64,000 nucleotides of DNA from contig NZ_JBBCIR010000007.1 in the NCBI RefSeq assembly GCF_037189885.1, forward strand, positions 70,218-134,217. Reading direction: 5' to 3'. The translations under genes and the position numbers were made by a program. Below the pieces are notes generated by a model that was not told the DNA's origin, did not search any database, and saw nothing but the letters and a program-made list of their open reading frames with translations. Positions 37,401-53,476 of this stretch are shown in pieces; position 1 is the first letter of the stretch; each line of letters begins with the position of its first letter. This DNA comes from Paludisphaera sp. GTDB lineage: Bacteria; Planctomycetota; Planctomycetia; Isosphaerales; Isosphaeraceae.

Positions 37401-38516
37401 TTCCTCACCGAGACGGGTACGGTCTCCGGCCCACCCCATCGCCTCGTCGCCAATGCCGGGAAGTCGTTCCAGGGCTCAATCGTCCTGGGCATGGGCTTCG
37501 TGATCGAGCCGGACGAGGCCCAGCGGCTGATCGACAAGGACTCCCGCAATAAGGACGTCCTGTTCCCCTACCTCAACGGCGAGGACCTCAACTCCCGCAC
37601 CGACCAGTCCGCCAGCCGGTGGGTGATCAACTTCTTTGACTGGCCTTTAAGTCGGGAGACAGCCCCCGACGCCCACACAGGGCCAGTAGCGGCGGACTTT
37701 CCCGATTGTTTGGCGATTGTCCAAGAAAGGGTAAAACCGGAGCGTGACAAGCTCGGACAGAAGAAAGATTCGTCAGCACAGGGGTATGCCAGATTTTGGT
37801 GGCAGTACGGACGCAAGGGGGTGGAACTCTACCGGACCATCGCCGGGATGGAGCGAGTTTTAGCTGTCCCTCTCGTGTCCAAGCACATGATCACCTCTTG
37901 GCAGAATATCGATCAAGTTTTCTCGCACGCTCTCGGTGTCATCGCCTGCGACTCGGATTCGGAACTTTCAATAACTCAAAGCACTCTCCATGAAGAATGG
38001 TCCCGTTCCTGCGGGTCCACCCTTGAGACCCGGATGCGCTACACGCCTTCCGACTGCTTTGAGACTTTCCCCTTTCCAACTGGTTCTTACTCGCTTCTCG
38101 CTTCGATCGGCGAAGCCTACCACAGCCACCGCCGGCAGATCCTACTCTCCCGCCGGGAGGGCCTGACCAAGACCTACAACCGCTTCCACGACCCCGACGA
38201 AACCGCCGCCGACATTCAGGCGCTCCGTGACCTCCACGTTGAGATGGACCGGGCCGTCGCCGCTGCCTACGGCTGGTCCGACCTCGACCTCGGCCACGGC
38301 TTCCACGAGACCAGGCGGGGCACCCGGTTCACCATCGGCGAGTCGGCCCGCCGAGAGGTCCTCGCCCGCCTCCTGAAGCTCAACCACGAGCGATACGCCG
38401 AGGAGGTCGCCCAGGGCCTCCACGACAAGAAGAAGGGCAAGCCCGCCAAGGCTCCCCGGAAGCCGAGGGGGAAGGCGGCCTCCGAGCCGAGCCTCTTCGG
38501 CGAGGAGGACGGCTGA
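34401..38516 (+). CDS. drmMI: DISARM class I adenine DNA methyltransferase DrmMI (type IIG/Eco57I-like)
   Basis: MSIAKQHAEWLSLIEVSGPFLS N-terminus, GKLFDPDRFPFLEG, IGHVYEGLL, SGTHYTP, ICDMACGSGAFL (motif I), YGVDKNP, CNPPFMGG (motif IV) and YLNGEDLN. Confidence 0.9.
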   Translation: MSIAKQHAEWLSLIEVSGPFLSLPVLVQRFPQGMEAHDPEHTKALRQVHEEWDQDQNGDRPDRAIHRQWIDWVLRNTLDLGDVLVEGQDIPQTLKADLPEHGETLRPDKAVMEPDGSRARLLIQTYPLKQKLGRVVEGKPWAASPDTRMMQLLHDTGVRLGLVTNGDQWMLVDAPKGETTGYASWFAPLWLEEPKTLQAFRTLLGLHRFFGVPEEETLERLLAQSAQDQQEVTDQLGYQVRRAVEVLVSSIDKANRDSGGSLLKGVPEPVLYEAALTVMMRLVFLFCAEERDLLLLGDELYDRNYAVSTLREQLRGTAADFGEEVLERRHDAWSRLLTTFRAVYSGVRHDRLKIPAYKGKLFDPDRFPFLEGRPAGTRWQDTLGQPLPVDNRTVLHLLEALQVLQVKLPGGGPATPRKLSFRALQITQIGHVYEGLLDHTAVRATEPVLGLSGSRDSEPEVPLARLETLAAKGEDDLLKFVKDETGRSSVATVKRLLASKLDDQALSRFRTACQGDERLWERARPFAGLVRLDTFDYPVVIPSGGVYVTAGTDRRSSGTHYTPESLTEPIVRHTLEPLVYVGPAEGTPRDQWRLKSAADLLDLKICDMACGSGAFLVQVCTYLSLRLLEAWEEAERRVEGTPRITPYGEVSKGLPDEQLIPLDRQERVLYARRLVAERCPYGVDKNPLAVEMAKLSLWLLTLAKDKPFTFLDHAIRCGDSLVGLSSIDQLLRFSMSENAKVRPLMEQQRQQIERRLNATMLLRRQIETVPSNTPQDIERKTLMFANVEDQRMRLTYAADMLLAATWEAKNASELESALNGMLAEVEYKFKDLPVVQLEAEAKGRLRKAVIEGRFHWALEFPEVFMDRGGFDAFVCNPPFMGGKKITGNLGTDYRDFLVQHLAGGKRGNADLCAYFTLRGASLLREGGHFGFLATNTIAQGDTREVGLDQLTTYGFVIPQAVSSRPWPGVASLEVAHVWLRRGRWSTPYFLDDKPVSGISPFLTETGTVSGPPHRLVANAGKSFQGSIVLGMGFVIEPDEAQRLIDKDSRNKDVLFPYLNGEDLNSRTDQSASRWVINFFDWPLSRETAPDAHTGPVAADFPDCLAIVQERVKPERDKLGQKKDSSAQGYARFWWQYGRKGVELYRTIAGMERVLAVPLVSKHMITSWQNIDQVFSHALGVIACDSDSELSITQSTLHEEWSRSCGSTLETRMRYTPSDCFETFPFPTGSYSLLASIGEAYHSHRRQILLSRREGLTKTYNRFHDPDETAADIQALRDLHVEMDRAVAAAYGWSDLDLGHGFHETRRGTRFTIGESARREVLARLLKLNHERYAEEVAQGLHDKKKGKPAKAPRKPRGKAASEPSLFGEEDG

Positions 38517-40417
38517 TGGACACCAGCGCCATCCTCGCCGCCCTCAGCCTGGGCGAGGAGAAGGACTGGGAGTTCAAGGCGGCCAGGGGCGGCCTGCCGG
38601 GGAGCGTCTGGGACACCTACAGTGCGATGGCCAACACCGACGGCGGCGTCATCGTCCTCGGGGTCGCCCAGAAGGACGGTCGGTTCGCCGTCGAGGGCGT
38701 GCCCGACGCTTTGAAGATGAAGCAGGACTTCTGGAACCTCGCCAACAACCGGGGCAAGGTCAGCATCAACCTGCTCTCGAACGACGACGTGACGATCGAG
38801 ACGATCGACGGCCAGTCGGTCATCGTCGTCCGAATCCCCAGGGCCACCCGGCGTCAACGCCCGGTCTACGTCGGCCAGAACCCGATCGAGGGGACCTTCC
38901 GGCGCTACCAGGAGGGCGACTACCGCTGCTCCCACGACGAGGTGGGGCGGATGCTCGCCGACCAGGCCGAGGACCCGGCGGACGGCGAGATCCTCGAACA
39001 CTTCGGGATGGACGACCTCGATCCCGAAAGCCTGAACCAGTACCGCAACCGCTTCTCGGCCCGTGCCCCGGCCCACCCCTGGCTCGCCCTCGACGGGCGG
39101 GGCCTGCTGGAGAAGCTCGGCGGCTGGCGGACCGACCGGCCCACGGGCCAGCACGGGCTCACCGTCGCCGGGCTGCTGATGTTCGGCAAGGACGAGGCGA
39201 TCCGGGACCACTCGGCGATCCCGCAGTACCACGTCGATTACCGAGAGCGGCTCTCCGACGACCCCGAGGTCCGCTGGACGGACCGCCTCACGGGCGACGG
39301 GACGTGGACGGCGAACCTGTTCCAGTTCTACCAGCGAGTCCTCTCCCGCCTGTTCGCCGACCTCAAGGTGCCGTTCCAACTCCGGCCCGACATGTTCCGC
39401 AAGGACGAGACCATCGTCCACGAGGCGATCCGGGAGGCGCTGGTCAACGCCCTGATCCACGCCGACTACCGGGGCAAGGGTGGGATCGTGATAGAGAAGT
39501 ACCGGGACCGGATCACGCTGTCCAACCCCGGATCGCTGTTGCTCCCGGTCGAGCAACTCTTCCGGGGCGGGATCAGCGAGTGCCGGAACAAGTCGCTCCA
39601 GTTGATGTTCCAGCAGATCGGCGGCGGCGAGAAGGCCGGGTCGGGGATCGACAAGATCCGCCAGGGCTGGGCCTCCCAGAAGTGGCGGCTGCCCCTGATC
39701 CGGGAGACGACGAGGCCGGAACGGGTCAGCGTGGTCCTGCCGATGGTCAGCCTGCTGCCCCCTGCGTCCCTCGATAAGCTGCATCGGCTGCTAGGGGCGA
39801 AATTCGGCGGTCTGGGCCCCGAGGAGGTCCAGGCGCTCGTCACGGCGGACGTCGAGGGGGAGGTGACGAACTTCCGGCTCCGGCAGTTCTCCGACCGCCA
39901 CACGACCGACATCACGAAGCTGCTGCAAACCCTCGTCTCCAAAGGGCTTCTCGACAAGGACGGCTATGGTCGGGCTGCCACGTACCAGCTAGCCGGGCCG
40001 CTGGTCGCATTCATCACTCCGGCTACAGCCGAGGCGAGGTCCGGTCACAGGGGGCCGAACTCCGGTCATAAGACGGAGGGGTCCGGTCATAAGGGAGAGG
40101 AAGCTCCGGCCATAGACCCGGAGCACGACCCCGCCCTGCTGGCCATCGCCGAGCCCGCCCGCCTCAGCCCCCGCCTCAAGCCCGACGAGATGCGACCGAT
40201 CGTCCTGCGGCTTTGCGAGGATCGTTACTTGACCTTCCGCCAGCTTGCCACCCTCCTGGGCCGGGAGCCCGGCGGCCTCCAGCGTTGGACGCTCCGGCCC
40301 ATGGCGCAGGAAGGGCAACTGCGGCTCAAGTACCCGGAAACGCCCAATCACCCCCGCCAGGCGTATCGCAGCAGCCCAAGAAGTGCGGACGGCGGCGTAT
40401 CCGGCGAAGCGAGTTGA
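38516..40417 (+). CDS. AlbA_2 (Schlafen-like) + HATPase_c_4 + winged-helix protein
   Basis: EEKDWEFKAA...YSAMANTDGGVIVLG (AlbA_2), AIREALVNALIHADY, ITLSNPG, RNKSL and GSGIDK (HATPase_c_4), and a C-terminal HPRQAY. Coupled to drmMI through TGATG. Confidence 0.88.
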   Translation: MDTSAILAALSLGEEKDWEFKAARGGLPGSVWDTYSAMANTDGGVIVLGVAQKDGRFAVEGVPDALKMKQDFWNLANNRGKVSINLLSNDDVTIETIDGQSVIVVRIPRATRRQRPVYVGQNPIEGTFRRYQEGDYRCSHDEVGRMLADQAEDPADGEILEHFGMDDLDPESLNQYRNRFSARAPAHPWLALDGRGLLEKLGGWRTDRPTGQHGLTVAGLLMFGKDEAIRDHSAIPQYHVDYRERLSDDPEVRWTDRLTGDGTWTANLFQFYQRVLSRLFADLKVPFQLRPDMFRKDETIVHEAIREALVNALIHADYRGKGGIVIEKYRDRITLSNPGSLLLPVEQLFRGGISECRNKSLQLMFQQIGGGEKAGSGIDKIRQGWASQKWRLPLIRETTRPERVSVVLPMVSLLPPASLDKLHRLLGAKFGGLGPEEVQALVTADVEGEVTNFRLRQFSDRHTTDITKLLQTLVSKGLLDKDGYGRAATYQLAGPLVAFITPATAEARSGHRGPNSGHKTEGSGHKGEEAPAIDPEHDPALLAIAEPARLSPRLKPDEMRPIVLRLCEDRYLTFRQLATLLGREPGGLQRWTLRPMAQEGQLRLKYPETPNHPRQAYRSSPRSADGGVSGEAS

Positions 40418-40684
40418 GGGACTATCATGCCGCAGATATGTCCCACGCCGGCAATCCCAACACTGGCCTCGCAGGAGGAGATGACCGTCGAGGGACATCG
40501 AAGACCTGTCTGCGGCGATGAGGACAAAGTCCCCTATCGTATCAGGGAAGAATCCAGGTCGCTATGTGGTGTTAGCGCTTCCGCCGACGAAGAAGCCATA
40601 ACGTAGTTGATATCCTCTGCCAGACCCCGGCCATACCGACTCTTCCTCCAATCCGGCGGTCCGTTGTGCATCAAAAGGGTTGTT

Positions 40685-42178
40685 ATGATTCCCGATCATC
40701 CGAACCTCAGGGATTCGCTTGCGGCGTTGAGCTTGGAGGAGGTGAAAGAGCTTCCCCCCTCAGGAGAGCATCTCGTTATCTGCGATAAGAGCCAACGGCG
40801 AGAGGCGGATGGGACGTTCTTCGCCGACCTCACGGAGGTCGTTCTGAAGCAGTCGGAGGGAGTGCCGGTCAGGCTGAACGGACTCGTGGAGAAGGTCGCC
40901 GAGTCGCTCCATCGTGCAGGTCACGCACACGTCGAGCCGAAGACCCCCGGCAGACGAGCCTTTGGCTCGATAATCCTGGCCTTCGCCGCATTAAGACGAG
41001 AGTCTCGGGACGGTACGCTCGATTCGTTGAACCAGATCCTTGAGAAGATCGGCGAGACGAGAGTCACCCAATGGGCCGTGTTGAAAACCCCTTGGACTGA
41101 GCCCGAGAAATACAATTTCGGAGACTTCGAATTCGGCGTAATGGATTCGGACCTGCTCCGGCACCGCTCGGAGAGGGCAGGCAGCGACTTTGCGCAACGG
41201 TATGGGGATGAATTTCGAGGCCGTCTGGCCCTCCGGCGTGATGATCGCACCATCAGATTTGCGAACTTCCGTGCAATCAAGCGGTTCCCTGTGTTGACGT
41301 CGCCTTCTTCGCTGGCCTACAGGCTGCTTGACGATTACTTCGGTCTCCTCTCGGATGCGGAGCGACGGCGATTCCTCACTGATCTCGATCAGCAGCAGGC
41401 AATCTACGGGGCGGCAGGGCTCGGCACGATCCCCTCCGATTTTTTGCGGAAAGCCGATGCCTTCATGGACTGGATCGCCGTGTTCACGACTCAGCAACGT
41501 GGTGTCGGATGGGTCGTCCCCACGGGGGGGATTCCCACGATGCACGTCACCTCGCCAGGGGAGCTGGCGAAAGGGCGTGCAGAGATCGAGGCTGGCTTGA
41601 GGATCTCGGAGTGGGGCACGAAGGGGCTGGACGGCACCATCCAACTCTTCGCAGAGTACCTCTACACGGCGAGGAACTTTGAAGATGACGGGCGCATTGA
41701 GGAAGCGCTCCTCCATTCCGTCTTTGCGCTCGATCTGCTCCTCGGGGGCGAATCGGGCGAGTCGCTCACTGCCGCACTCGCAGGACGTGCCGCAATGGTG
41801 TCACATATGGCGCTGGGGAAGGACTTCGACGAGGTCGACCGATTCGTTCGCCAAAGCTATGACATGCGTAGTGGATATGTGCATCGTGGTGAGCGAGGGA
41901 ATCTGTCTGAGTCGTCGAGAGACTCTTTGGTCGATCGTTACTCACGGCTGAAGGCGATTTGCCGGGCCGTGCTCGGGGCCGCTTGCTTCGCCAGGGTCCA
42001 ACCCTGGAGCGACCATCCGGATGCGAAGAGGATTTGGCTTGGTCGTATTGATATACTTATAAAAAAGCGTGATATAGGGCAAAGTCTCGACGCTGACGAG
42101 GTTGGGACGCTCGGCTTGGACAAATGCGACCTAGATCACGGGAAGATCCCTGGCGTCACGATTCGCTGGGCGAGATGA
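40685..42178 (+). CDS. HEPN-domain protein (Apea-like HEPN), putative RNase
   Basis: C-terminal ALLHSVFALDLLL...LAGRAA...VRQSYDMRSGYVHRG with an R-x4-H motif at 41867-41884. AT-richer than the flanks. Start at ATG 40685; the ORF track starts at TTG 40607. Confidence 0.72.
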   Translation: MIPDHPNLRDSLAALSLEEVKELPPSGEHLVICDKSQRREADGTFFADLTEVVLKQSEGVPVRLNGLVEKVAESLHRAGHAHVEPKTPGRRAFGSIILAFAALRRESRDGTLDSLNQILEKIGETRVTQWAVLKTPWTEPEKYNFGDFEFGVMDSDLLRHRSERAGSDFAQRYGDEFRGRLALRRDDRTIRFANFRAIKRFPVLTSPSSLAYRLLDDYFGLLSDAERRRFLTDLDQQQAIYGAAGLGTIPSDFLRKADAFMDWIAVFTTQQRGVGWVVPTGGIPTMHVTSPGELAKGRAEIEAGLRISEWGTKGLDGTIQLFAEYLYTARNFEDDGRIEEALLHSVFALDLLLGGESGESLTAALAGRAAMVSHMALGKDFDEVDRFVRQSYDMRSGYVHRGERGNLSESSRDSLVDRYSRLKAICRAVLGAACFARVQPWSDHPDAKRIWLGRIDILIKKRDIGQSLDADEVGTLGLDKCDLDHGKIPGVTIRWAR

Positions 42179-42234: not shown

Positions 42235-45200
42235 ATGGCTCAAACGGCCCTTAAACAAGCCGTCCCCTCCTCCCTCGAACTCCGGAACCTGCTGGAGGAA
42301 ATGGCGGTCCGGGAACTCCGTGGACCCGTCCAGGGGGAGGAGGAAGAGGTCCCCGGACGCATACGGGACCGCTACCTCGTCGGCATCCTCGCCCCACGCC
42401 AGCGGGCCGAGGGCGAGGCCCCGCCCCTGTTCGACCGCCCCGCCGCCCCGCCCGCCGAGGATGACGACACGCAGGAAGGCGACCTACCGCCCGGCGACGA
42501 CATGGCGGTCGAGGGGTCCGGGCGGGGCAACCTCGGGGGCGACGACGGCCCGACCGAGCGGACGCCCTCGCTGTCCAAGGCCGTCTTCCCCTCGTCGCTG
42601 GGCCTCTCATTCTGCGTCCCGCTCGACGTCCCCTCCCTGAAGGTTACGCCCCGCTGGGGCCGCTACGACAAGGCCCCCAGCGCCTTCGAGACCAACCCCA
42701 AGACCGGGACCCCGAAGCGGGTCTGGAAGCGCCAGCCCTGCGGCACGTCCCACGAGGTCCCGCTGGAGGCCGGGCCGGTCGGCCCCATCGTTGCAGACGA
42801 GGCGTTCCCCGACGCCAAGGTCCGGGGGCTGATCCGCCGCCGCACCGACCACTGGAGCGTCACCCTCTTCCTGGTCAACGAGGGGGTCGAGCCGCCGCCG
42901 CCCAACCGGGAACGCACCTGGATGTTCCAGTGCGAACTGGCGGTCGAGGCCCCCGACGGCTCGCCGGTCTTCCACAAGCGGTTCGCCCGGATCGACCTGG
43001 ACGGCACCGACGAGGCGTACAAGCAGGAGGCTGACATGCTGGCGATGATCTATCGTCGCCACGTCGAGTTTGCCGTCGGCCACGGCACGGCGGTCCACGC
43101 CGACCTGGACCCGGCGGACCCCAACCGGGCCTCCCGGATCACGACCAGGGCCATCCCCAGCTACGAGATCCCCAAGACCACCCCGCCGACCGTCGAGGAT
43201 GCCGACCGGAACCCCGCATTCGCCAAGCTGGACGGGCTCGTCCTGGACATGAAGCTCCTGCACGAGACGCCCCAGGCCGGGCTCCGTGCCAGGCTGGAGC
43301 CGCTGGTCTTCGCCTACCGGGAGTGGATCAGGCTGGAGAAGGCGAGGATCGATGACCCCGCCGAGAACCTCGACCACTTCAAGTCGGTGGCGAGGACGGC
43401 CATCGAGCGGTGCGAGAAGACGCTCAGGCGGATCGAGGAGGGGCTCGACCTGCTGGTGTCCGACCCGCAGGTGGCCGACGCCTTCCGGTTCATGAACCAG
43501 GCCATGTGGCTCCAGCGGACCCGCTCGCTCTTCTCCGAGGGCGTCCGGCGAGGCCGGGACATCGACTACAACGACGTGGACGTCCCGAAGAACCGCTCCT
43601 GGTATCCCTTCCAGTTGGCGTTCATCCTGCTGAACCTCCCCGGCCTCTCCCGGCTCGACCACCCCGACCGGGCCGAGAGCCCCGACGCCGTGGCCGACCT
43701 CCTCTGGTTCCCGACCGGCGGCGGCAAGACCGAAGCCTACCTCGGCCTGACGGCCTTCACCGTCGCCATCCGCCGCCTCCAGGGGGTCGTGGAGGGCCGC
43801 TCGGGCGAGGACGGGATCGCCGTCCTGATGCGGTACACCCTGCGGCTGCTGACCCTCCAGCAGTTCCAGCGGGCGACGACCCTGATCTGCGCCTGCGAGG
43901 TCATCCGCCACCAGGCCGAGGCACGGGGCGACCACCGCTGGGGCACGACGCCGTTCCGCATCGGGCTCTGGGTCGGCTCGGCCTCGACCCCGAACCGCAC
44001 GGCCCACGGCGAGGAGGCGCTCAAGACCGCCACCGGCAGCGCCGACAAGAAGCGGCACGGGGCCGTCGGCGGAAGCGGGTCGCCCCACCAGTTGACCAAC
44101 TGCCCCTGGTGCGGCTCGAAGATCGACTTCACGCCCCGCTGCTACCACATCGAGACCGCCAGCAAGGGGCGGGGCCGCACCTTCGTCTACTGCGGCGACA
44201 AGTTCGGCCAGTGCGCCTTCAGCCGGCGGCAGTCCCCCGACGAGGGCCTGCCGATCCTGGTCGTCGATGAGGAGATTTACCGGCGGCTGCCCTGCCTGCT
44301 GATCGCCACGGTGGACAAGTTCGCCCAGATGCCGTGGAAGGGCGAGGTCGAGATGCTCTTCGGCCAGGTGGACGGCCTCTGCGAGCGGCACGGGTTCCGG
44401 TCTCCTGAGATCGACGACGCCGGGAGCCACCCGAAGAGCAAGGACGGCAAGTTCCCTCCCGCCCGCACGGTCCCGGCCAATACGCTGCGGCCCCCGGACC
44501 TGATCATCCAGGACGAGTTGCACTTGATCAGCGGCCCGCTCGGGACGCTGGTGGGCCTCTACGAGACGGCCATCGACCGCCTCTGCTCGTGGAAGGTCGG
44601 CGGCAAGGTCGTCCGGCCCAAGCTGATTGCCTCGACGGCGACGATCCGCCAGGCCAGGGATCAGGTCCACGCCTTGTTCATGCGGGACACCAGCGTCTTC
44701 CCGCCCAACGGCCTGGACGTGCGGGACAACTTCTTCTCGCTCCAACGCCCCTCGACCGAGGCCACGCCGGGCCGGAAGTACATCGGGATCTGCGCCCCCG
44801 GACGCAACTTGCGGAACTGCCTGATCCGCACCTACGTGACGATGCTCTCGGCGGCCCAGGTCCTCTTCGACGAGCACGGGGAAGCCTCCGACTCGTGGAT
44901 GACCCTGGTGGGCTACTTCAACAGCCTGCGGGAACTCGGCGGCATGCGGCGGATGGTCGATGACGACGTGCGGACCCGCCTGGGCAAGATGGCCGAGTGG
45001 GGCCTCGCCAAGCGCATCCTGTACTCGCCCGACTCGGTGAAGGAGTTGACCTCCCGGCTCGGCTCGGCGGCGATCCCCGAGACGCTGGACCGGCTGGAGA
45101 ACGTCTTCGACCCGGCGATGGAGGAGAAACGGAAGGAGGCCGGGCGGACGCACACCCGCCCCACGGACCTGAAGCCCCGCCCGCTCGACGTGCTGCTGGC

Positions 45201-45918
45201 GACGAACATGATCTCCGTCGGCGTGGACGTGCCGAGGCTGGGGCTGATGGTGTGCAGCGGCCAGCCCAAGACGACCTCCGAGTACATCCAGGCCACCAGC
45301 CGGGTCGGGCGGAAGTTCCCCGGCCTGGTCGTCACGGTCTACAACTGGGCTCGACCGAGAGACCTGAGCCACTTCGAGACCTTCGAGCACTACCACGCCA
45401 CGTTCTACCAGCACGTCGAGGCCCTTTCGGTCACGCCCTTCTCCGAGGGGTCGATCTACCGGGGGCTTTCCGCCCTCTTAGTCTCGCTCGTCCGGCTGCG
45501 GGGCTTCGAGTTCAACAAGAACGAGGCGGCGATGCGGATGGCGACCGACTCGACACACCCGTTCGTCCAGGAGGCGATCGACTGGATCGTGCGACGGGCG
45601 AGGCTCGTGGGCGGCAACGAGGTGGCCACGAAGGTCGAGGCGGAACTGAGGCAGAAGGTGGACCACTGGCAGAAGCGGGCCTTGCGGCTCTCCGGCGGCA
45701 GTCGGCTCGGCTACGAGGGCAAGAAGGACAGCGAGACGGTCGGCCTGCTGCAAAAACCGGGGATCGAGGCGTGGGACGAGTACACCTGCCTGAACTCGCT
45801 CCGGGAGGTCGAGCCGACCTCCTTCCTGATCCTGGACGATCACAACCTGGACGACGAGGCCGACTTCATGAACGTGGCCCAGGGCGACGGGGAGGTTGCC
45901 GATGAACAAGGGGCGTGA
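42235..45918 (+). CDS. drmA: DISARM helicase DrmA
   Basis: RYLVGILAP, FAVGHGTAV, WYPFQLAFIL, LWFPTGGGKTEAYLG, LRLLTLQQFQRA, IIQDELHLISGPLG, ATNMISVGVDV and EYIQATSRVGR. Confidence 0.93.
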   Translation: MAQTALKQAVPSSLELRNLLEEMAVRELRGPVQGEEEEVPGRIRDRYLVGILAPRQRAEGEAPPLFDRPAAPPAEDDDTQEGDLPPGDDMAVEGSGRGNLGGDDGPTERTPSLSKAVFPSSLGLSFCVPLDVPSLKVTPRWGRYDKAPSAFETNPKTGTPKRVWKRQPCGTSHEVPLEAGPVGPIVADEAFPDAKVRGLIRRRTDHWSVTLFLVNEGVEPPPPNRERTWMFQCELAVEAPDGSPVFHKRFARIDLDGTDEAYKQEADMLAMIYRRHVEFAVGHGTAVHADLDPADPNRASRITTRAIPSYEIPKTTPPTVEDADRNPAFAKLDGLVLDMKLLHETPQAGLRARLEPLVFAYREWIRLEKARIDDPAENLDHFKSVARTAIERCEKTLRRIEEGLDLLVSDPQVADAFRFMNQAMWLQRTRSLFSEGVRRGRDIDYNDVDVPKNRSWYPFQLAFILLNLPGLSRLDHPDRAESPDAVADLLWFPTGGGKTEAYLGLTAFTVAIRRLQGVVEGRSGEDGIAVLMRYTLRLLTLQQFQRATTLICACEVIRHQAEARGDHRWGTTPFRIGLWVGSASTPNRTAHGEEALKTATGSADKKRHGAVGGSGSPHQLTNCPWCGSKIDFTPRCYHIETASKGRGRTFVYCGDKFGQCAFSRRQSPDEGLPILVVDEEIYRRLPCLLIATVDKFAQMPWKGEVEMLFGQVDGLCERHGFRSPEIDDAGSHPKSKDGKFPPARTVPANTLRPPDLIIQDELHLISGPLGTLVGLYETAIDRLCSWKVGGKVVRPKLIASTATIRQARDQVHALFMRDTSVFPPNGLDVRDNFFSLQRPSTEATPGRKYIGICAPGRNLRNCLIRTYVTMLSAAQVLFDEHGEASDSWMTLVGYFNSLRELGGMRRMVDDDVRTRLGKMAEWGLAKRILYSPDSVKELTSRLGSAAIPETLDRLENVFDPAMEEKRKEAGRTHTRPTDLKPRPLDVLLATNMISVGVDVPRLGLMVCSGQPKTTSEYIQATSRVGRKFPGLVVTVYNWARPRDLSHFETFEHYHATFYQHVEALSVTPFSEGSIYRGLSALLVSLVRLRGFEFNKNEAAMRMATDSTHPFVQEAIDWIVRRARLVGGNEVATKVEAELRQKVDHWQKRALRLSGGSRLGYEGKKDSETVGLLQKPGIEAWDEYTCLNSLREVEPTSFLILDDHNLDDEADFMNVAQGDGEVADEQGA

Positions 45919-47806
45919 CAAGCCACGGGTCGGCGAACTTCGGCCCAGCCAGATGCTCACGACGTTCGGAGTCGGCTCGGTCGTCGATCTGCCGCATCTC
46001 TCGGTCATGGTCATGGGGCTGGAAGACTGGCCCATCAGCGACTTCCGAGAGTTGACCGAGGAGCGGCTCCTGGCGTCGATGCGCAACGTCCTCGGGGCGC
46101 AGGTCAACGCCCTCCGTTCCCCGCCGATCGTGCCCGACACGGACCGCACGAACCCGTTCGAGGAGCAGTCGTACGTGGGGGTGCCGGTGGCCCCGTTCCC
46201 CCGGTGGATGCTCTGCCCCCGCTGCCGCCGCCTGGCCCCGCTGAGCAGCAACCAGTTCGCCCTGAAGCCGGACCCCTATCGGCCCGACCGGGTGAAATAC
46301 GTCCACGAGAATTGCCGCTACCCCGGCAAGCTCCCCACCGCCGTCCCGGCCCGCTTCGTGGTGGCCTGCAAGAACGGCCACCTCGACGACTTCCCCTGGG
46401 TGAACTTCGTCCACGGGGGCGGCCCGCCGGACCACCCCTACAAGCTCCAACTCCTGGAGGTGGGGCCGTCCGGGGAGGCGGCGGACATCTACGTCCGCTG
46501 CGAGACCTGCAACACGTCCCGCCCCATGTCGGACGCCTTCAAGCTCCACGACGGCGACCTGCCCGCCTGCCGGGGGCGGCGGCCCCACCTACGGGACTTC
46601 GACGAGGACGGCTGCAAGGACGAGCAGGGCCAGCCGATCCGGGTCCGGGCGATGACGCAGGGGGCCTCCAACACATGGTTCCCGATCCTGCTCTCGGCCC
46701 TCTCGATCCCGCAAAGCTCGAACCTGCTCAAGCAACTCGTGGTCGACCGCTGGAGCGACCTCTACGACATCGAGGGCGAGGGGGACATCGCCAAGCTGCG
46801 CCGTCGCAACCTCCTGCGGGACTTCTCCGACTTCCCGGACGCCGACCTGTGGGCGGCGATCCGGGAGCGGCAGATGGGGAGCGAAGAGGCGACGGTCGAG
46901 GACGTGGCCGACCTGAAAACCCCGGAATGGCAAATCTTCTCCAATCCCGACGGTGCCCAGAGGACGAACGACTTCCGGCTCCGGCAGGTCTCGGCCCCTC
47001 GCCGCTTCGCCGGATTCTTCGAGAAGGTCGTGCTGGTCGAGCGGGTGCGTGAGGTGCGGGCCTTGATCGGCTTCACCCGGATCGAGTCGCCCGGCGATTA
47101 CGAGAGCCCGGCGGACTTCCCCGAGGCCCAGCGGATGCGAGTCGCCCGAGGCAAGACGACCTGGGTCCCGGCCGGCGAGATCCGGGGCGAGGGGATCTTC
47201 TTTCAATTCTCCGAGACGGAGGTGGAGGGCTGGCTCGCACGGGTCCAGCGTCTCAACATGGAGTTCTTCGCCGCCCACAAGCAGTGGAGGACGGGCCGTG
47301 GCCTGACGCCGCCCGAGGAGGGCTTCCCCGGCCTGCGGTTCGTGCTCCTGCACTCGTTCGCCCACGCCCTGATCCGGCAGCTTTCGCTGGAGTCCGGATA
47401 CACGGCGGCCTCGCTCCGGGAGCGGATCTACTCCCGGAATCCGGGAACCGACCGCCCCGAGATGGCGGGCGTGCTGATCTACACCGGGGCTCCCGACAGC
47501 GAGGGGACGCTCGGCGGCCTGGTGTCGCTCGGGGAACCGGCGGTCCTGGAACGTCACCTGAGGCAGGCGTTGGACTCGATGCGGCTCTGCTCCAGCGACC
47601 CCCTGTGCGCCGAGCACCATCCGGGCAAGGAAGGTACGTCGCTGCACGGGGCGTCGTGCCACGCCTGCCTGTTCGCCTCGGAGACCTCGTGCGAGCGGGG
47701 GAACAAGTATTTGGACCGCACGGTTTTGGTGCCGACGGTGGACCGGGAACAGTTCGCCTTCTTCCGGGATAGTCAAGGAGCCCCGAGCGGCTCTTCCTCT
47801 TGCTGA
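45902..47806 (+). CDS. drmB: DISARM DUF1998 protein DrmB
   Basis: GELRPSQMLTTFGVG, PARFVVACKNGHLDDFPW, LLHSFAHALIR, GTLGGL and the Cys cluster CSSDPLC...HGASCHACLFASETSCERGN. Confidence 0.93.
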   Translation: MNKGRDKPRVGELRPSQMLTTFGVGSVVDLPHLSVMVMGLEDWPISDFRELTEERLLASMRNVLGAQVNALRSPPIVPDTDRTNPFEEQSYVGVPVAPFPRWMLCPRCRRLAPLSSNQFALKPDPYRPDRVKYVHENCRYPGKLPTAVPARFVVACKNGHLDDFPWVNFVHGGGPPDHPYKLQLLEVGPSGEAADIYVRCETCNTSRPMSDAFKLHDGDLPACRGRRPHLRDFDEDGCKDEQGQPIRVRAMTQGASNTWFPILLSALSIPQSSNLLKQLVVDRWSDLYDIEGEGDIAKLRRRNLLRDFSDFPDADLWAAIRERQMGSEEATVEDVADLKTPEWQIFSNPDGAQRTNDFRLRQVSAPRRFAGFFEKVVLVERVREVRALIGFTRIESPGDYESPADFPEAQRMRVARGKTTWVPAGEIRGEGIFFQFSETEVEGWLARVQRLNMEFFAAHKQWRTGRGLTPPEEGFPGLRFVLLHSFAHALIRQLSLESGYTAASLRERIYSRNPGTDRPEMAGVLIYTGAPDSEGTLGGLVSLGEPAVLERHLRQALDSMRLCSSDPLCAEHHPGKEGTSLHGASCHACLFASETSCERGNKYLDRTVLVPTVDREQFAFFRDSQGAPSGSSSC

Positions 47807-47816
47807 GCGAATCGCC

Positions 47817-48605
47817 ATGGCCGCCACCCCAGCCCTCATCGAGGCCGTGACGAAGCTCGCCTGCGGCGTGCCGGTCGATGTCGTCGATCGGGTGGCCCAG
47901 GTCATCTCGGCGTGCGACCCCGCCGAGGCCCGGCGGCGGATCGCCGACGCCGTGCCCCATGCTCGCCACCGCAGCCTGGCCCTTGGGTTCCTCGACGCCT
48001 GGCTCGCCGAGGGACCGGGCGTCACGGCGGCCGAGGTGTCCATCTCCCTCCAGACGGCGGCCCACCTCAACCGCCGGAGGGGTCGGGAGCAGTCGGTCGA
48101 GTTGGCGTGGACCGGCCCACGATGCCGGTCGATCCCGCACCGCCACACCGAGCAGGCGATCCTCCAGGTGCTCGACTCTGCGAGGTCCCGCCTCCTCCTA
48201 GTCAGCTACGCCGTCTACTCGATCCCGAACATCCGAGATGCCGTCGTCCGGGCCGCCCGGCGGGGCGTCGTGATCGAGGTCGTGGTCGAGACGCCCGACC
48301 GGCTCGAAGGGCACGGCACGTACAGCACGCTCCAGGCCCTCGGCGAGGACGTGGCCGCCTGCTCGAAGGTCTACGTCTGGCCCAGTGAGGAGAGGGGCCG
48401 GAGCGGGGGCAAGCCCGGCATCCTGCACGTCAAGTGCGTCGTGGCCGACGGTCGCTGGCTGTTCCTCTCCTCGGCGAACCTGACGGAGTACGCCTTCACC
48501 GTCAACATGGAGCTTGGCCTCCTCTTGACGGGGGGATGCCTGCCGGGCCAGGTCGAGGGCCTCTTCGATCGGCTGATCGAGGACGGGATTCTGGTCAAGG
48601 CGTGA
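47817..48605 (+). CDS. drmC: DISARM phospholipase D-family nuclease DrmC
   Basis: VELAWTGP, LLVSYAVY, HxKxxxxD motif LHVKCVVAD, SSANLT and NMELG. Confidence 0.92.
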   Translation: MAATPALIEAVTKLACGVPVDVVDRVAQVISACDPAEARRRIADAVPHARHRSLALGFLDAWLAEGPGVTAAEVSISLQTAAHLNRRRGREQSVELAWTGPRCRSIPHRHTEQAILQVLDSARSRLLLVSYAVYSIPNIRDAVVRAARRGVVIEVVVETPDRLEGHGTYSTLQALGEDVAACSKVYVWPSEERGRSGGKPGILHVKCVVADGRWLFLSSANLTEYAFTVNMELGLLLTGGCLPGQVEGLFDRLIEDGILVKA

Positions 48606-48679
48606 AGCCCGGAAGGAACAATCAGGCTGGTCAAGGATTTGCGACGTCAGCAAGACGGCCGATAGGCGGACCTTTGCCA

Positions 48680-50983
48680 ATGCTCGACGACCGGATCAAA
48701 TCTCGCATCCTGGACGACCACAGGCGGCTGACCGCCGACGGGAAGCTCTTCCCGAGGCCGAAGCTCGACGAGTTCTACAAGAACTTCCGCTCCCGGTTCG
48801 GCCCAGACCAGTTGGCGGGCCTCGACGGCGAGCGTCTGCTCGAAGCCATGCACGGCCACGGCGGCAAGGACAGCATGGTCTACTGGCTGGAGTTCAAGAA
48901 CGACGACGAGTTCCCCGGACGCTTCGGCAGCATCGCCGGGGGCAGCGCCTTCAAGTTCGGCATCTTCCGCAGCAAGGAGACCGGGACCTGGGTGACGGGC
49001 TCCCCGACCAAGGTCGTCGAGTTGTCGGTCCCCCAGGCCGTCGAGGTCGCCCGCAAGCACCGGGACCAACTGATCCGGGGGACCGAGCGGCTCGGCGGGC
49101 TCCCCGACCTCGCCGACGACGCCGAGTACCGGGGCCTCCAGGAAGACCTCGGGCGGATCGCCCCGTCGGTCAACGACCTGGCCTGGGGCCACAAATACTT
49201 CTCCCTGATGCACCCTGAGAAGCTCGACGACTATCACAACCCCGACTACCAGCGGTTCCACCTCGTCAAGATGCTCCAGGTCCCTCCCGAGGGCGAGGGC
49301 CGCTACCTCTGCGCCGGTCGCTTCGTGGCCGCCGCCCACGAACTCGGCATCCCGATCAATCACCTGACGACGACCCTCAATCACCACGACGGGGAGCCGC
49401 ACGCCTACTGGCGGGTCGGCACATCCGACGGGACGCAGCCGAGGAATCGCTGGCCGTTCATGCGGGACGGGTCCTGCGTGGCGATCGGCTGGCCCGACCT
49501 GGGCGACCTGTCCAATTTCGAGAAGGACGCCGCCTCCAAGGAGAGGCTGGTCAATCTGCTCGGCGAGCGCTATCCCGGCACCCCGCAGCAGGTCGGGAGG
49601 GCGGCCGCCCAGGTCCTCAACTTCGCCAGGGGGATCGCCGAGGGCGACGTCGTCCTCGCCTGCGACGGCCAGTCCGTCCTGGGCGTCGGTCGTATCGTCG
49701 GGGCGTACGCCCACGATCCCGCCTCCGACTTCCCCCACCGCCGGGCAGTCGAGTGGCTCTCGCTGGACGAGTGGAGGATGCCCGAGCCCGAGGGGCTCCA
49801 GACGACCGTCCACCGGCTCAGGAAGGCCCCGGCCAACCTCGTCGAGGCCGAGGAGCGTTCGCTCGACGGCCCTGTCGTCGCCCGGCCCCCGATCACGGTG
49901 CCGAACAAGACGGGCGGCGGGTCCGTGCCCCGCCCCGTGGGAGTTCCCGGTCGCATCCAGGCCGTGCTCGAACGCAAGGGCCAGGCGATCCTCTACGGGC
50001 CTCCGGGCACCGGCAAGACGTACTGGGCCGAGCGGACGGCGCTCGACCTCGCCTCATACTCGCTGGGCGGGAAGCCCTTCCACGGGCTGTCGGACGGCGA
50101 GAAGGCCGAGGTGGCGGGCGGACTCAATGCTGTGGGGGCCGTCCGCATGGTGAGCTTCCACCCGGCCTACGGCTACGAGGACTTCATCGAGGGCTACCGC
50201 CCCAAATTGCACGAGGGGCGGATGACTTTCGTCCTCCGGGACGGGATCTTCAAGCTGCTATGCCGGGACGCCGAGGCCCGGCCCGATCGCCCCTTCGTCC
50301 TGATCATCGACGAAATCAACCGGGGCGACATCCCACGCATCTTCGGCGAACTGCTGACCGTCATCGAGAAGGACAAGCGGGGCAAGTCGGTCATCCTGCC
50401 GCTGAGCCGGGCGGCCTTCCGGGTGCCCCCGAACGTCCTCCTCATCGGGACGATGAACACGGCGGACCGCTCGGTCGCCCTTCTCGACACCGCCCTGCGG
50501 CGTCGGTTCGGGTTCGTCGAGTTGATGCCGGACGTCACGCTCCTGGAGGGGACGGCGGTCGCCGACATCCCGCTGGGTCCCTGGCTGGAGGCGCTCAACC
50601 GCCGGATCTGCGAGCACGTCGGGCGGGACGCCCGCAACCTCCAGGTCGGCCACTCGTTCCTCATGGAGGCGGGCAGGCCCGTCCGGGATGCCGCCCGGTT
50701 CTTCCGGGTCGTCCGGGACGAGATCATCCCGCTGCTGGAGGAGTATTGCTACGAGGACTTCGACGCCCTTCACGCCATCCTTGGGGGCGGGTTGGTCGAT
50801 CTCCCGAACCGGGCGGTCCGCCACGACTTGTTCGAGGAGCCGACGGGGCCGGAACTCGTCCAGGCGCTCCTGGCCCCGTGCCCCGAGGTGCTGACCTCGC
50901 TCAAGGCCGTGACGAGTCTCGGGGAGGGCGAGGCCGAGATCGACGAGGGCGAGGAGGAGCCCGATGCGGGGTCGCCGTCGTGA
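48680..50983 (+). CDS. mcrB: McrB-family AAA+ GTPase with composite N-terminal recognition region
   Basis: ILYGPPGTGKT, VSFHPAYGYEDFIEG, IIDEINRG, MNTADRS and ALRRRF. The N-terminal region includes an EVE/PUA-like segment (VAIGW...GDVVL...LGVGRIVG...HRRAVEW). Confidence 0.92.
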   Translation: MLDDRIKSRILDDHRRLTADGKLFPRPKLDEFYKNFRSRFGPDQLAGLDGERLLEAMHGHGGKDSMVYWLEFKNDDEFPGRFGSIAGGSAFKFGIFRSKETGTWVTGSPTKVVELSVPQAVEVARKHRDQLIRGTERLGGLPDLADDAEYRGLQEDLGRIAPSVNDLAWGHKYFSLMHPEKLDDYHNPDYQRFHLVKMLQVPPEGEGRYLCAGRFVAAAHELGIPINHLTTTLNHHDGEPHAYWRVGTSDGTQPRNRWPFMRDGSCVAIGWPDLGDLSNFEKDAASKERLVNLLGERYPGTPQQVGRAAAQVLNFARGIAEGDVVLACDGQSVLGVGRIVGAYAHDPASDFPHRRAVEWLSLDEWRMPEPEGLQTTVHRLRKAPANLVEAEERSLDGPVVARPPITVPNKTGGGSVPRPVGVPGRIQAVLERKGQAILYGPPGTGKTYWAERTALDLASYSLGGKPFHGLSDGEKAEVAGGLNAVGAVRMVSFHPAYGYEDFIEGYRPKLHEGRMTFVLRDGIFKLLCRDAEARPDRPFVLIIDEINRGDIPRIFGELLTVIEKDKRGKSVILPLSRAAFRVPPNVLLIGTMNTADRSVALLDTALRRRFGFVELMPDVTLLEGTAVADIPLGPWLEALNRRICEHVGRDARNLQVGHSFLMEAGRPVRDAARFFRVVRDEIIPLLEEYCYEDFDALHAILGGGLVDLPNRAVRHDLFEEPTGPELVQALLAPCPEVLTSLKAVTSLGEGEAEIDEGEEEPDAGSPS

Positions 50984-52281
50984 CGGGCCACGCCCTCCGG
51001 CTCGCCGAGTGGCGTACGATCCCCCCCGATCCGGGGAGCCCGACGGAGGGCGTCAGCCTCGGGGATGAGCCCTCCGTGCGAGAGACCGCCCGCCGCCTGA
51101 CCGAGAGCGGCATGCTGGAGGTCCAGGAACTTCGCACGGGCTTGTCCGTGCGTTCGACTTCCTTCGTCGGGCGGGTGCGACTTGGGGCGATCGACGTCAC
51201 GATCGTCCCCAAGCTGCGGACCGTGGCCCTGCTGAGGCTGCTCCGCTACGCCTACGGGCTGCGGGACCTCCACCTCCTCCCCACCGCCGCCCACGCCACG
51301 CAGGACTTCGGCTTCCAGGACCTCCTGATCTCTCAGTTGGCCGAGGAGGCGCAGGAACTCGTGGCGAGTGGCCTCCGGCGGGGATACCTGCGGCGGGATG
51401 AGGACTTGGCCTCGCCCCGAGGTCGCATCGATTTCCGGGCGTTGGCCGGTCGGGGTGCCCTCGTGGAGGCGACCCTGCCGTGCGCCCACCACCGCCGTGA
51501 TGAAGATCGGCTGATCAACCGGGTCCTGCTGGCGGGCCTTCGACTGGCGGCATCTCTAGCCGGAGACCGAGGGCTGCGGTCCAGGCTCGGGCGGCTCGGC
51601 GACCGGCTCGGCGAGACGGTCACATCGGTCCGGCTCGACCGCCAGGTGTTCGTGCGACTGGAGGCCGAGATGGACCGCACGACCGGGGCCTACGAGCCCG
51701 CCGTCTCGATCATCCGCATCCTCCAGGAGGGCGGCGGCCTCTCCCTGGATGAGGGCGAGGCCGGGCCACCTTTGCCCGGCTTCCTCTTCGACATGAACCG
51801 ATTCTTCCAGGCGTTGCTGGGGAAGTTCCTGGCGGACAATCTGCCGGAATATACGGTCCGCCCCGAACATCGACTCAAGGGCATGCTCGCCTACGTCCCC
51901 GGCTGGAACCCCCGGCACGCCCAGGCCCCGACGCCCCGACCGGATTTCGTGGTGACTCAAGGGGCGAACGTCGTGGCGGTCCTGGATGCGAAGTATCGGG
52001 ACCTCTGGGAGAACCCGCTGCCCAGGGACATGCTCTACCAGCTTGCGATGTATGCGATGGGCCACGAGGGCGGGACGGCCACCATCCTCTATCCGACAGC
52101 CCACGCCCAGGCGACTGAGGCCCGGATCGAAGTGAGGGACCCAGTGAACGCAGGGAGGAGAGCACTCGTCGCCCTGCGGGCGGTCGATCTGGAGGAACTC
52201 GAAGGGCTCGTGTCGGCCAAGCCGACGGCCTCGATCCTCCGGCAGAGGATTACCTTTGCCCATCGACTCGCCTTCGGATAA
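50980..52281 (+). CDS. mcrC: McrC-family PD-(D/E)xK nuclease subunit
   Basis: SFVGRV, PRGRIDF, NRVL, LFDMNRFFQ, RPDFVV...VLDAKYR and MLYQLAMY. GTGA overlap with mcrB. Confidence 0.9.
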   Translation: MTGHALRLAEWRTIPPDPGSPTEGVSLGDEPSVRETARRLTESGMLEVQELRTGLSVRSTSFVGRVRLGAIDVTIVPKLRTVALLRLLRYAYGLRDLHLLPTAAHATQDFGFQDLLISQLAEEAQELVASGLRRGYLRRDEDLASPRGRIDFRALAGRGALVEATLPCAHHRRDEDRLINRVLLAGLRLAASLAGDRGLRSRLGRLGDRLGETVTSVRLDRQVFVRLEAEMDRTTGAYEPAVSIIRILQEGGGLSLDEGEAGPPLPGFLFDMNRFFQALLGKFLADNLPEYTVRPEHRLKGMLAYVPGWNPRHAQAPTPRPDFVVTQGANVVAVLDAKYRDLWENPLPRDMLYQLAMYAMGHEGGTATILYPTAHAQATEARIEVRDPVNAGRRALVALRAVDLEELEGLVSAKPTASILRQRITFAHRLAFG

Positions 52282-52366
52282 GAGAACCAAGGTGGCTTAC
52301 GATAGTGGACGGTCAGGGTCCGGTGAATCCGTGGGCTTCGAGCCGTTTAACAACCGAGGCCGGGCG

Positions 52367-53476
52367 ATGTTGAAGCTCCCCGTGATGACGCCCCACACGG
52401 CGGCGAAGCACCTCCTCCTGAAGCGGTATCTCGATCGCTGGTTCCCGATCCTCGGCAAGGGCGACAGGTCGATCAACTACATCGACGGCTTCGCCGGCCC
52501 CGGCGAGTACCAGGACGGGGAGGAGGGATCGCCCCAGGTCGCCATCGGGGCGGCCAAGGCCCACGTCGACCGGGGGACGCTCGCCCCGGACGTCCAGATC
52601 GACTTCACCTTCGTCGAGGCCGACCCCCATTCCGCCGAGAACCTCCGATCCAAGCTCTCGGCCCTGACCTTGCCGCCCTCCTTCACCTGGAGCGTTGTCC
52701 CCGGCGAGTTCGCCGAGGTCATCGGGGCCGAACTCGACCAGATCGAGAGGTCGGGGACGGCACTCGCACCGACCTTCGCCTTCGTGGACCCGTTCGGGTT
52801 CAGCGGCATCCCCCTGGACCTGATGGCCCGAATCCTCCGCTACCCGAAGTGCGAGGTCTTCGTCAACGTGATGGTCGAGTTCATCAATCGCTTCCTCGAA
52901 CACCCGAACGAGCAGGTCGTCGCCCACTTCCCGCAGACCTTCGGGACCGACGAGGTGCTGGAGATCCCGAGTCGTCTGGGGGACCGGGTGGCGGCGATCC
53001 TGGCTCTGTACCGCAGCCAACTGGGGACGCTGGCGAGGTACGTCGGTCGGTTCGACATGCACGGCAGGCGGGACCGGAAGACCTATTCGCTCTTCTTCGC
53101 CTCGAACCACCCGAGGGGCTTCGAGAAGATGAAGGAGGCGATGTGGTCGGTGGACAAGGCCCAGGGGTCGAGGTTCTCGGACGCCGACCCCGGCGAGTCC
53201 TACGCCTTCGAGTTGTTCCCCTTCTGGCCGCTCTGGGACCAATTGCTCGCCCGGTTCGCCGGGCAGCGGGTCCCCATGGAGGACGTCGAGCGGTTCGTGG
53301 TCGAGGAGACCGATTTCCTGCCGACGCACGCCCGCACCATCTTCAAGGAATGCGAGCGGAAGGGCGATCTGGTTGCCGAGTCTGCGCCCGGATATCGCCG
53401 ACCGCCGGGGACGTACAAGTCGGACCGGGTGTTCATCGGGTTCCCGAGTCGGGACGTGAGGCGGGGGCTCTTCTAA
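52367..53476 (+). CDS. tcmP: Three-Cys-motif partner protein TcmP (SAM-binding fold)
   Basis: HTAAKHLLLKRYL, YIDGFAGPGEY, TFAFVDPFG, EVFVNVM, YSLFFASNHPRGFEKMKEAMW; adjacent to a DUF5131 gene. Confidence 0.85.
   Translation: MLKLPVMTPHTAAKHLLLKRYLDRWFPILGKGDRSINYIDGFAGPGEYQDGEEGSPQVAIGAAKAHVDRGTLAPDVQIDFTFVEADPHSAENLRSKLSALTLPPSFTWSVVPGEFAEVIGAELDQIERSGTALAPTFAFVDPFGFSGIPLDLMARILRYPKCEVFVNVMVEFINRFLEHPNEQVVAHFPQTFGTDEVLEIPSRLGDRVAAILALYRSQLGTLARYVGRFDMHGRRDRKTYSLFFASNHPRGFEKMKEAMWSVDKAQGSRFSDADPGESYAFELFPFWPLWDQLLARFAGQRVPMEDVERFVVEETDFLPTHARTIFKECERKGDLVAESAPGYRRPPGTYKSDRVFIGFPSRDVRRGLF

Follow-up and report, generated by a model that had tools for sequence, protein, structure and literature searches.

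A class I DISARM operon with cargo at two junctions

The window examined here, a stretch of 64,000 nucleotides (nt) from Paludisphaera sp. (contig NZ_JBBCIR010000007.1, positions 70,218 to 134,217), carries eight consecutive open reading frames (ORFs), all on the + strand, which the PADLOC and Pfam assignments identify as a complete class I DISARM system plus three extra genes (Table 1). The core triplet drmA, drmB and drmC is preceded on the same strand by drmD and drmMI. One of the extra genes, orf167, lies between drmD and drmMI; the other two, between drmMI and drmA, are the main subject of this study. One encodes a Schlafen (AlbA_2) domain joined to a GHKL ATPase domain, and the other a protein of 497 amino acids (aa) with a candidate HEPN ribonuclease (RNase) domain. 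The original prediction, made from the sequence alone, had given the one-strand order as drmD-orf-drmMI-[AlbA_2]-[HEPN]-drmA-drmB-drmC and the system as class I DISARM. Both readings were borne out, the order by PADLOC and Pfam together, the identity by PADLOC matches to all five drm genes.

Table 1. Features of the DISARM operon, in window coordinates
Feature	Position	Strand	Assignment or basis
drmD, SNF2 helicase, 1050 aa	30686..33838	+	PADLOC DrmD PDLC02621, 1415 bits; Pfam SNF2-rel_dom, Helicase_C
orf167, small gene, 167 aa	33841..34344	+	sits in the variable drmD-drmMI slot
drmMI, N6-adenine methylase, 1371 aa	34401..38516	+	PADLOC DrmMI PDLC02643, 1794 bits; Pfam Eco57I, MmeI domains
Schlafen(AlbA_2)-GHKL ATPase protein, presumed C-terminal winged helix-turn-helix (wHTH), 633 aa, 'Schlatpase'-type	38516..40417	+	Pfam SLFN_AlbA_2 1.5e-11, HATPase_c_4 2.7e-12
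Ex4ExK Schlafen catalytic motif, EEKDWEFK (E14-E19-K21)	38555..38578	+	read in translation
Spacer before the HEPN candidate gene, 267 bp, G+C 0.57	40418..40684	.	composition and ORF boundaries
HEPN candidate, 497 aa: N-terminal alpha/beta region and putative C-terminal ApeA-like HEPN domain	40685..42178	+	family without library model
Predicted all-helical HEPN domain, residues ~300-470	41582..42094	+	AlphaFold (AF2) domain model, profile comparisons
R-x4-H motif RSGYVH, residues 395-400 (R395, H400)	41867..41884	+	invariant dyad in family alignment
drmA, helicase; start uncertain (42175, 42214 or 42235)	42235..45918	+	PADLOC DrmA 1064 bits; Pfam Helicase_C
drmB, MZB/DUF1998	45896..47806	+	PADLOC DrmB 263 bits; Pfam MZB
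drmC, PLD nuclease	47817..48605	+	PADLOC DrmC 208 bits; Pfam PLDc_2

As had been noticed from the letters, drmMI and the Schlafen gene are coupled through a TGATG sequence, the TGA stop of the former being at 38514-38516 and the ATG of the latter at 38516-38518. The gene order holds, but two start codons had to be corrected. The true start of the HEPN candidate gene is the ATG at 40685 and not the TTG at 40607: a 497-aa product identical in every letter is already on record, and the relatives are 490-500 aa long. A 267-bp spacer therefore follows the Schlafen gene. For drmA the most likely start is the ATG at 42235, with 42214 and 42175 as further candidates in place of 42124. Alignments with its relatives begin at residues 3-10 of the protein counted from 42235, which favours this start, and the PADLOC DrmA match begins at residue 46 of the 42124 ORF. 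The ATG at 42175 is in frame with drmA and overlaps the TGA stop of the HEPN candidate gene as ATGA (42175-42178), so that the two genes are translationally coupled if drmA starts there. An imperfect 17-nt repeat of this junction (82% identity) is found at 40469-40485, just past the Schlafen stop.

The best DrmA model, PDLC02567, has 1750 positions and the window DrmA covers only 541-1733; some DrmAs therefore have an N-terminal extension of ~540 residues, which is missing here. These extra positions raised the idea that the HEPN candidate ORF is a split-off N-terminal part of drmA. It was rejected because the HEPN candidate protein has no PDLC02567 match, is full-length within its own family and is found away from drmA. 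A consensus scan of the whole operon gave no promoter and no + strand terminator, a negative that carries little weight at 70% G+C, and the sequencing runs that contain the sequence are DNA metagenomes only, with no RNA runs for this soil metagenome-assembled genome.

Of 401 genomes of the phylum, 42 have DrmA. For 20 DrmA loci the upstream region was taken, without bait, and both drmMI and drmA were seen in 17. Counted with genome G016, the sample has seven class I loci in which the two genes abut and ten (~59%) in which they are separated by 1.7-8 kb of varied, effector-like cargo: this junction serves class I DISARM as a general cargo slot. The cargo comprises Schlafen-GHKL genes, HEPN_MAE_28990 with GmrSD_N and CBS, CAP12-type TIR with SIR2-like, HATPase_c_3 with a methyltransferase, an EEP nuclease, beta-CASP/RMMBL, a Macro domain, AAA_21 (AbiEii/OLD-like), HNH, and unknowns. 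The picture of a canonical five-gene class I DISARM, on which the original prediction leaned, understates how frequently the gap is filled.

Individual occupants of the gap are a CAP12-type TIR and SIR2-like gene (locus L036, 5424-7520), HEPN_MAE_28990 with GmrSD_N (L041, 1505-3272), a beta-CASP/RMMBL nuclease (L047, 12330-14165) and a Macro-domain protein (L049, 1356-2723). A 648-aa gene without Pfam match, on the - strand, fills it in genome G370 (L044, 1631-3577) and is a candidate effector.

The drmD-drmMI junction is a second cargo slot. Its occupant in the window, orf167, matched nothing in Pfam, NCBIfam, PADLOC or PHROGs, and has a G+C content at third codon positions (GC3) of 0.53, against ~0.9 in the drm genes. 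Elsewhere this slot holds unrelated genes of 270 and 282 aa, a Peptidase_U49 (Lit-like) gene (L030) and a member of the HEPN candidate family (L008).

The Schlafen-GHKL protein and its position next to motor genes

Pfam places an SLFN_AlbA_2 domain (PF04326) at residues 14-138 of the first gap protein (E 1.5e-11; 45.3 bits, cut-off 25.3) and a HATPase_c_4 GHKL domain (PF13749) at residues 324-399 (E 2.7e-12; 47 bits, cut-off 26); a GHKL N-box, EALVNALIH, is also present. The N-terminus reads GEEKDWEFK, i.e. E14-x4-E19-x-K21, and E-x4-[ED]-x-K is kept in 119 of 121 close homologues. The AlbA_2 protein is therefore, as announced, of the Schlafen type, with both the domain and an intact nuclease motif: Ex4(E/D)xK is the catalytic motif of human SLFN11 and of the bacterial Schlafens, which are phage-activated tRNases, and mutating it in RorSlfn5 abolishes both phage defence and tRNA cleavage (Taboada et al. 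2025, 10.1101/2025.07.24.666596). The wHTH fared less well, since the Pfam search of the window protein found no HTH and, beyond the two domains, only Fic-like_C at E 0.14. Its presence is presumed from a relative, the Schlafen-GHKL protein of locus L053, which has HTH_24 (E 1e-8), and from the literature, where an HTH is carried by >90% of the Schlafen-GHKL architecture (10.64898/2026.05.29.728809).

Among bacterial Schlafens, the combination with a GHKL ATPase and an HTH is the most frequent architecture (HisKinase 34%, HisKinase-HTH 19%; 10.1101/2025.07.24.666596). A preprint on Schlafen-containing Argonautes (SLFN-pAgo) names the module the 'Schlatpase' supradomain and reports that the GHKL domain drives ATP-dependent tetramerisation, that tRNA is cleaved by the Schlafen domain, and that the module has been exchanged with type I restriction-modification (R-M) systems, where it is stand-alone or fused (10.64898/2026.05.29.728809). 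The PADLOC model for SLFN-containing pAgo matches residues 33-342 of the window protein. The family is large (>4400 clusters, ~60% identity across phyla) and its members are mostly misnamed 'RecG' or 'transcriptional regulator'. The gene is single-copy in its genome, and close relatives are sporadic (9 of the 401 genomes).

Of the closest relatives, the six whose neighbours could be read (55-74% identity) are all encoded directly upstream of drmA in class I DISARM. Four metagenomic relatives with 65-74% identity were sampled, and every one of them is found there, as is that of genome G016 (58% identity). The overlap with drmA is a clean 4 nt in L028, L029 and L030; it is the same in L027, but drmA is decayed there. 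Two further Schlafen-GHKL proteins (L035 in genome G038 and L053 in genome G018) are encoded directly upstream of drmA-family genes. They are only 24-27% identical to the window protein and to each other, and both retain Ex4(E/D)xK; together with the window clade they make up three divergent Schlafen lineages next to drmA. Relatives at 38-53% identity occur in type I R-M operons in the order hsdM-hsdS-Schlafen-hsdR, with a 4-nt overlap between the Schlafen gene and hsdR in L020, L021 and L025 and a 53-nt gap on plasmid pMEGA of Pseudoalteromonas translucida TAC125. This hsdS-hsdR slot is the one that PrrC occupies in the prr locus.

The GC3 of the Schlafen gene (0.90) is like that of the drm genes (0.88-0.95). 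The gene is thus no casual insert: it has long been resident beside the motor gene, as a facultative companion. In the window its coupling to that gene has been broken by the HEPN candidate gene: the 4-nt overlap of the related loci is replaced by the 267-bp spacer and the HEPN candidate gene itself. Two of the related DISARM loci are decaying. In L029 (5800-8920) drmMI is split by an insertion sequence (DDE_5 transposase) and the Schlafen gene is intact; in L027 (10905-12356) drmA and drmB are reduced to fragments and the Schlafen gene is full-length. It may therefore outlive its host system.

Compared with the other prokaryotic GHKL-HTH Schlafens, the window protein has in common SLFN_AlbA_2 with PF13749, the Ex4(E/D)xK motif, a defence-island context and a module that is also documented in type I R-M operons. 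It differs from further prokaryotic Schlafens in having no fused Argonaute, NACHT or Ig-like sensor, and from the published GHKL-HTH ones in being a drmA companion in class I DISARM, an association not met in the literature searched. No published mechanism for the HisKinase-HTH class was found there either.

A candidate HEPN family

The 497-aa protein belongs to no family of Pfam, NCBIfam, PADLOC or PHROGs, all four libraries having been searched. Its family, as defined by an exhaustive phmmer search at E<=1e-3, numbers 323 clusters (50% identity), of which nearly all are 450-510 aa long, with a close subfamily of ~35 clusters, all unnamed. The RSGYVH motif originally noticed is present, at residues 395-400 of 497. 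A block MRSxYVHRG is invariant in 24 close members, and across 140 members (16-53% identity) R395 and H400 are the sole invariant columns. In the full-length AF2 model (pLDDT, predicted local distance difference test, of 83) the N-terminal half is alpha/beta and the C-terminal part consists of helices only; modelled alone, the C-terminal domain is all-alpha with a pLDDT of 91.

Several comparisons point to a HEPN domain. HEPN_Apea (PF18739) is the sole Pfam family that relatives match repeatedly, six out of 60 doing so at E<=0.1, with a best value of 3.5e-5. The top PDB match of the C-terminal domain profile is Ec2ApeA (E 0.037), whose catalytic segment IYRTRNLIVHTG (catalytic R502) aligned to the YDxRSxYVHxG of the family. 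An hhalign comparison with eight bona fide HEPN_Apea domains, drawn from genomes of this phylum, gave a P of 1.6e-4 with the motifs aligned. The best Foldseek matches of the domain include 2hsb (probability 0.82), 4nqf, Csm6 (6tug) and AbiV (9bj7), none of them significant. Other searches were silent: a six-frame PF18739 search of the genome itself does not pick up the window gene, nothing meaningful came from Foldseek comparisons of the complete model with PDB and BFVD (phytochrome matches had a template modelling score, TM, of ~0.1), and hhalign of the domain profile against a single HEPN_MAE_28990 protein gave no signal, which is uninformative. The links are individually weak and convergent, and with the invariant dyad they make it highly probable, at the level of sequence and models, that the protein carries a HEPN domain. 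The HEPN identity originally proposed is supported to that extent, but the fold is statistically not established.

ApeA cuts tRNA in the anticodon loop when activated by dinucleotides that derive from infection, 5'-phosphorylated deoxydinucleotides (10.64898/2026.01.26.701840; PDB 9HXI). The window protein resembles it in being a single protein with an N-terminal non-catalytic region and what appears to be a C-terminal HEPN domain, in the local context of the motif (YDxRSxYVHxG versus IYRTRNLIVHTG) and in its defence context. The homology is marginal, though (the E and P values above, over half a domain), the N-terminal part is predicted to be alpha/beta, whereas the N-terminal and Mid domains of ApeA are mainly helical, and the length is 497 aa against ~593. 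Judged by its sequence, the protein is not ApeA itself, because it has no PADLOC ApeA match, differs in its N-terminal architecture and is shorter.

Thirteen loci of the family, window included, were examined; scans for the close subfamily alone gave at least two genomic and at least four metagenomic loci. Four of the 13 are in class I DISARM, at three operon positions. The order is drmMI, a 140-aa gene, HEPN, four opposite-strand genes and drmA in L004/L005, and drmD, HEPN, two small genes and drmMI in L008. On contig P0007 HEPN is followed, after 56 nt as in the window, by drmA-drmB-drmC. Two loci are associated with type I R-M, one with a Shedu gene nearby (L003) and the other beside hsdR (L006). 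Three (L007, L031 and L032) lie in other defence neighbourhoods, with Dnd-like genes, SIR2_2, AIPR and a deaminase, and the neighbourhoods of L009, L001, L002 and L033 are uninformative. The family was not found in plasmid records.

Two of these contigs call for a comment. The L003 contig has no DISARM, but immediately upstream of its HEPN gene a 36-aa fragment (9850-9957) is 83% identical to DrmD residues 117-151, and looks like the footprint of a former DISARM embedding. The closest relative of the window protein (P0004) is encoded between a gene of >1113 aa and another in the same orientation, at distances of 74 and 54 nt, which is consistent with drmMI and drmA as neighbours.

The HEPN candidate gene has a GC3 of 0.68, compared with ~0.9 for the drm genes, and the G+C of the spacer upstream is low (0.57); the gene was therefore acquired separately from the operon. 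Insertion scars around the cassette were looked for and only short imperfect repeats were seen, none convincing. No partner gene is conserved. A small antitoxin-like one was looked for, but the adjacent small ORFs of L004, L008, L007 and L028 are mutually unrelated and absent in the window.

Proposed function and alternative explanations

Same families at same operon positions in independent loci (35-74% identity) mean that the arrangement is not due to chance, and the earlier view that the inserts are not random passengers holds, both families recurring in DISARM and in type I R-M operons. What does not hold is their treatment as equivalent, since the Schlafen gene is compositionally native and lineage-conserved and the HEPN candidate gene a separate acquisition. 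A toxin-antitoxin or other two-gene module was considered and rejected because the two families co-occur in the window only.

The reading that we favour, with moderate confidence, is that of a DISARM operon with two independent RNase-type modules in its drmMI-drmA cargo slot, which would give a second, translation-arresting layer of defence. The gene identities, motifs, conserved positions and composition described above are shown, whereas RNase activity, latency and any coupling to the Drm proteins are inferred. The Schlafen protein would most likely be a latent tRNA/RNA nuclease acting through Ex4ExK, and by analogy with the published Schlafens its target may be tRNA. ATP-dependent oligomerisation through the GHKL domain would gate its activity, together with a signal tied to foreign DNA or to the motor complex. 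The fixed position of its gene 5' of the motor gene in two types of system suggests that it is made in stoichiometric amounts with this complex, which perhaps also controls it. The HEPN protein would most likely be a stand-alone abortive-infection RNase, with the N-terminal alpha/beta region as presumed sensor. Its closest analogue is ApeA, a self-contained sensor and effector in which an infection-derived ligand binds to the non-catalytic part and the HEPN dimer cuts anticodon loops. The HEPN protein may well work independently of DISARM. Both RNases would halt translation when the DNA-level defence of DISARM fails or is inhibited.

Some observations weigh against this proposal. The Schlafen gene is missing from most class I DISARM loci, and is therefore dispensable for DISARM; the presumed wHTH leaves room for a regulatory role of the protein, which it may have. 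The HEPN candidate gene, with its own 267-bp spacer, its foreign composition and its mostly non-DISARM loci, may act without any link to DISARM. The HEPN assignment also has its weak sides: the window protein scores only 12.2 bits against HEPN_Apea over the motif region (cut-off 24.4, E 0.25), the hhalign probability is 50% with the alignment confined to the motif-bearing C-terminal half of the domain, and the Foldseek HEPN matches of the domain are all at E>0.2 and TM<=0.45.

That both genes are autonomous defence systems, for which the DISARM operon is just a safe harbour allowing co-transfer and co-expression, is on the whole doubtful, being quite likely for the HEPN candidate gene and less likely for the Schlafen gene. 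Genes embedded in BREX, DISARM and type I R-M are common, and cloned singly many of them are functional (10.1101/2024.01.29.577857); ApeA and RorSlfn5 each sense and act without partners, the cargo of the slot is very heterogeneous, the neighbours of the HEPN family include Shedu, type I R-M, SIR2 and AIPR, and one Schlafen relative stands alone on a Burkholderia plasmid. Yet the Schlafen gene has a single precise position, directly 5' of the motor gene and in most cases overlapping it by 4 nt, in two unrelated types of system and three divergent lineages, and this is more order than mere harbouring predicts. The same order, i.e. a Schlafen gene directly 5' of the motor gene in both system types, usually coupled to it and recruited by at least three lineages, is the reason for a bolder and equally tentative idea, namely that Schlafen-GHKL-wHTH is a general PrrC-like guard physically tied to the ATP-driven motor subunit (DrmA or HsdR). 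The motor complex would then keep the tRNase latent until motor stalling or phage anti-restriction proteins free it. Separately, the 497-aa protein would be the founder of a new family of ApeA-like sensor RNases.

A quite different function for either protein is harder to defend. The Schlafen-GHKL-wHTH protein could be a DNA-binding regulator or a specificity accessory, with a Schlafen domain that binds nucleic acid without cleaving it. Database names of its relatives ('transcriptional regulator', 'putative DNA binding domain-containing protein', 'RNA-binding domain-containing protein') go in this direction, as do the near-general HTH of the architecture and the fact that the module of Poribacteria can be fused to HsdS, the specificity subunit (10.64898/2026.05.29.728809). 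This we regard as very improbable in view of the near-complete conservation of Ex4ExK, which the bacterial Schlafens tested so far require for defence, and of the place of the gene between those for methylase and helicase, regulators of defence operons being usually at the operon start. Somewhat less remote, but still unlikely, is that the 497-aa protein is no HEPN RNase and that R-x4-H has a different role, e.g. in binding a ligand, within a helical domain of merely HEPN-like appearance. The window protein has neither a significant Pfam match nor a significant Foldseek match, and full-length profiles against PDB returned nothing or antibody noise, which adds to the partial hhalign alignment already mentioned. 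Such a function would have to account for an R and an H at the exact x4 spacing as the only invariant residues of the family, for HEPN_Apea as the only Pfam family met repeatedly, for a top PDB profile match to ApeA aligned at the catalytic R502 motif, for the enrichment of HEPN proteins (2hsb, 4nqf, Csm6, AbiV) among the best fold matches, and for a genomic context of defence.

PrrC, the anticodon nuclease of the EcoprrI type Ic R-M locus, is kept latent by binding to the R-M complex. The window shares with that locus an RNase-type gene that has the specificity/methylase genes on one side and the motor/restriction gene on the other (here drmMI and drmA), and the Schlafen relatives occupy precisely the hsdS-X-hsdR slot. 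There is no sequence relationship: PrrC has an ABC-ATPase-like N-domain and a nuclease domain of its own, neither of which is found in the window proteins, and the latency shown for PrrC is for them a conjecture. PrrC has been named the paradigm of the embedded gene by Payne et al. (2024, 10.1101/2024.01.29.577857), who found such genes frequent in BREX, DISARM and type I R-M (96.7% co-oriented) and validated several, including the HEPN HEC-08, where the histidine of Rx4-6H is needed for defence. Neither window protein matches a PDC or HEC model of PADLOC v2.0.0, and HEC-08, a DUF3644 HEPN with zinc fingers, is of another family. A survey of BREX-type operons likewise describes nested HEPN proteins and Schlafens with a minimal histidine kinase and wHTH, interpreted as suicidal second-line back-up effectors (Nucleic Acids Research 2026, PMC12839542). 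It covers BREX and DUF499 systems and not DISARM, and the HEPN candidate of the window belongs to another family, for which there is no model. In the literature searched, no paper was found that connects DISARM either with Schlafens or with the family of the HEPN candidate.

The operon is thus a well-supported new instance of a known phenomenon, that of nested effectors, and not a new type of system. It extends the published 'embedded' and 'back-up effector' concepts to DISARM without overturning current ideas, and what it adds to them is a drmA-linked Schlafen clade and the unmodelled candidate HEPN family. The mechanism of DISARM is poorly understood and its canonical gene list conceals how often extra effectors are present; the drmMI-drmA hotspot offers a cheap route to mining them. 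For the commonest and as yet uncharacterised class of Schlafens, the neighbourhood with a motor gene points to a specific candidate partner, DrmA/DrmB or HsdR, and if the guard idea is true, the single-case paradigm of PrrC would be widened to thousands of loci. The HEPN candidate family, rare as it is (~320 clusters at 50% identity), has clear putative catalytic residues and can be added to the catalogues of defence genes.

The G+C content of the window is ~70% and falls to ~0.65 from roughly 28 kb on. Genes for McrB (AAA_5) and McrC follow drmC directly (~48600-52281), and the region is therefore a defence island that extends beyond DISARM. Next comes a gene containing GMT-wHTH (52256-53476) and, beyond it, a convergent DUF5131 gene on the - strand (53572-54732).

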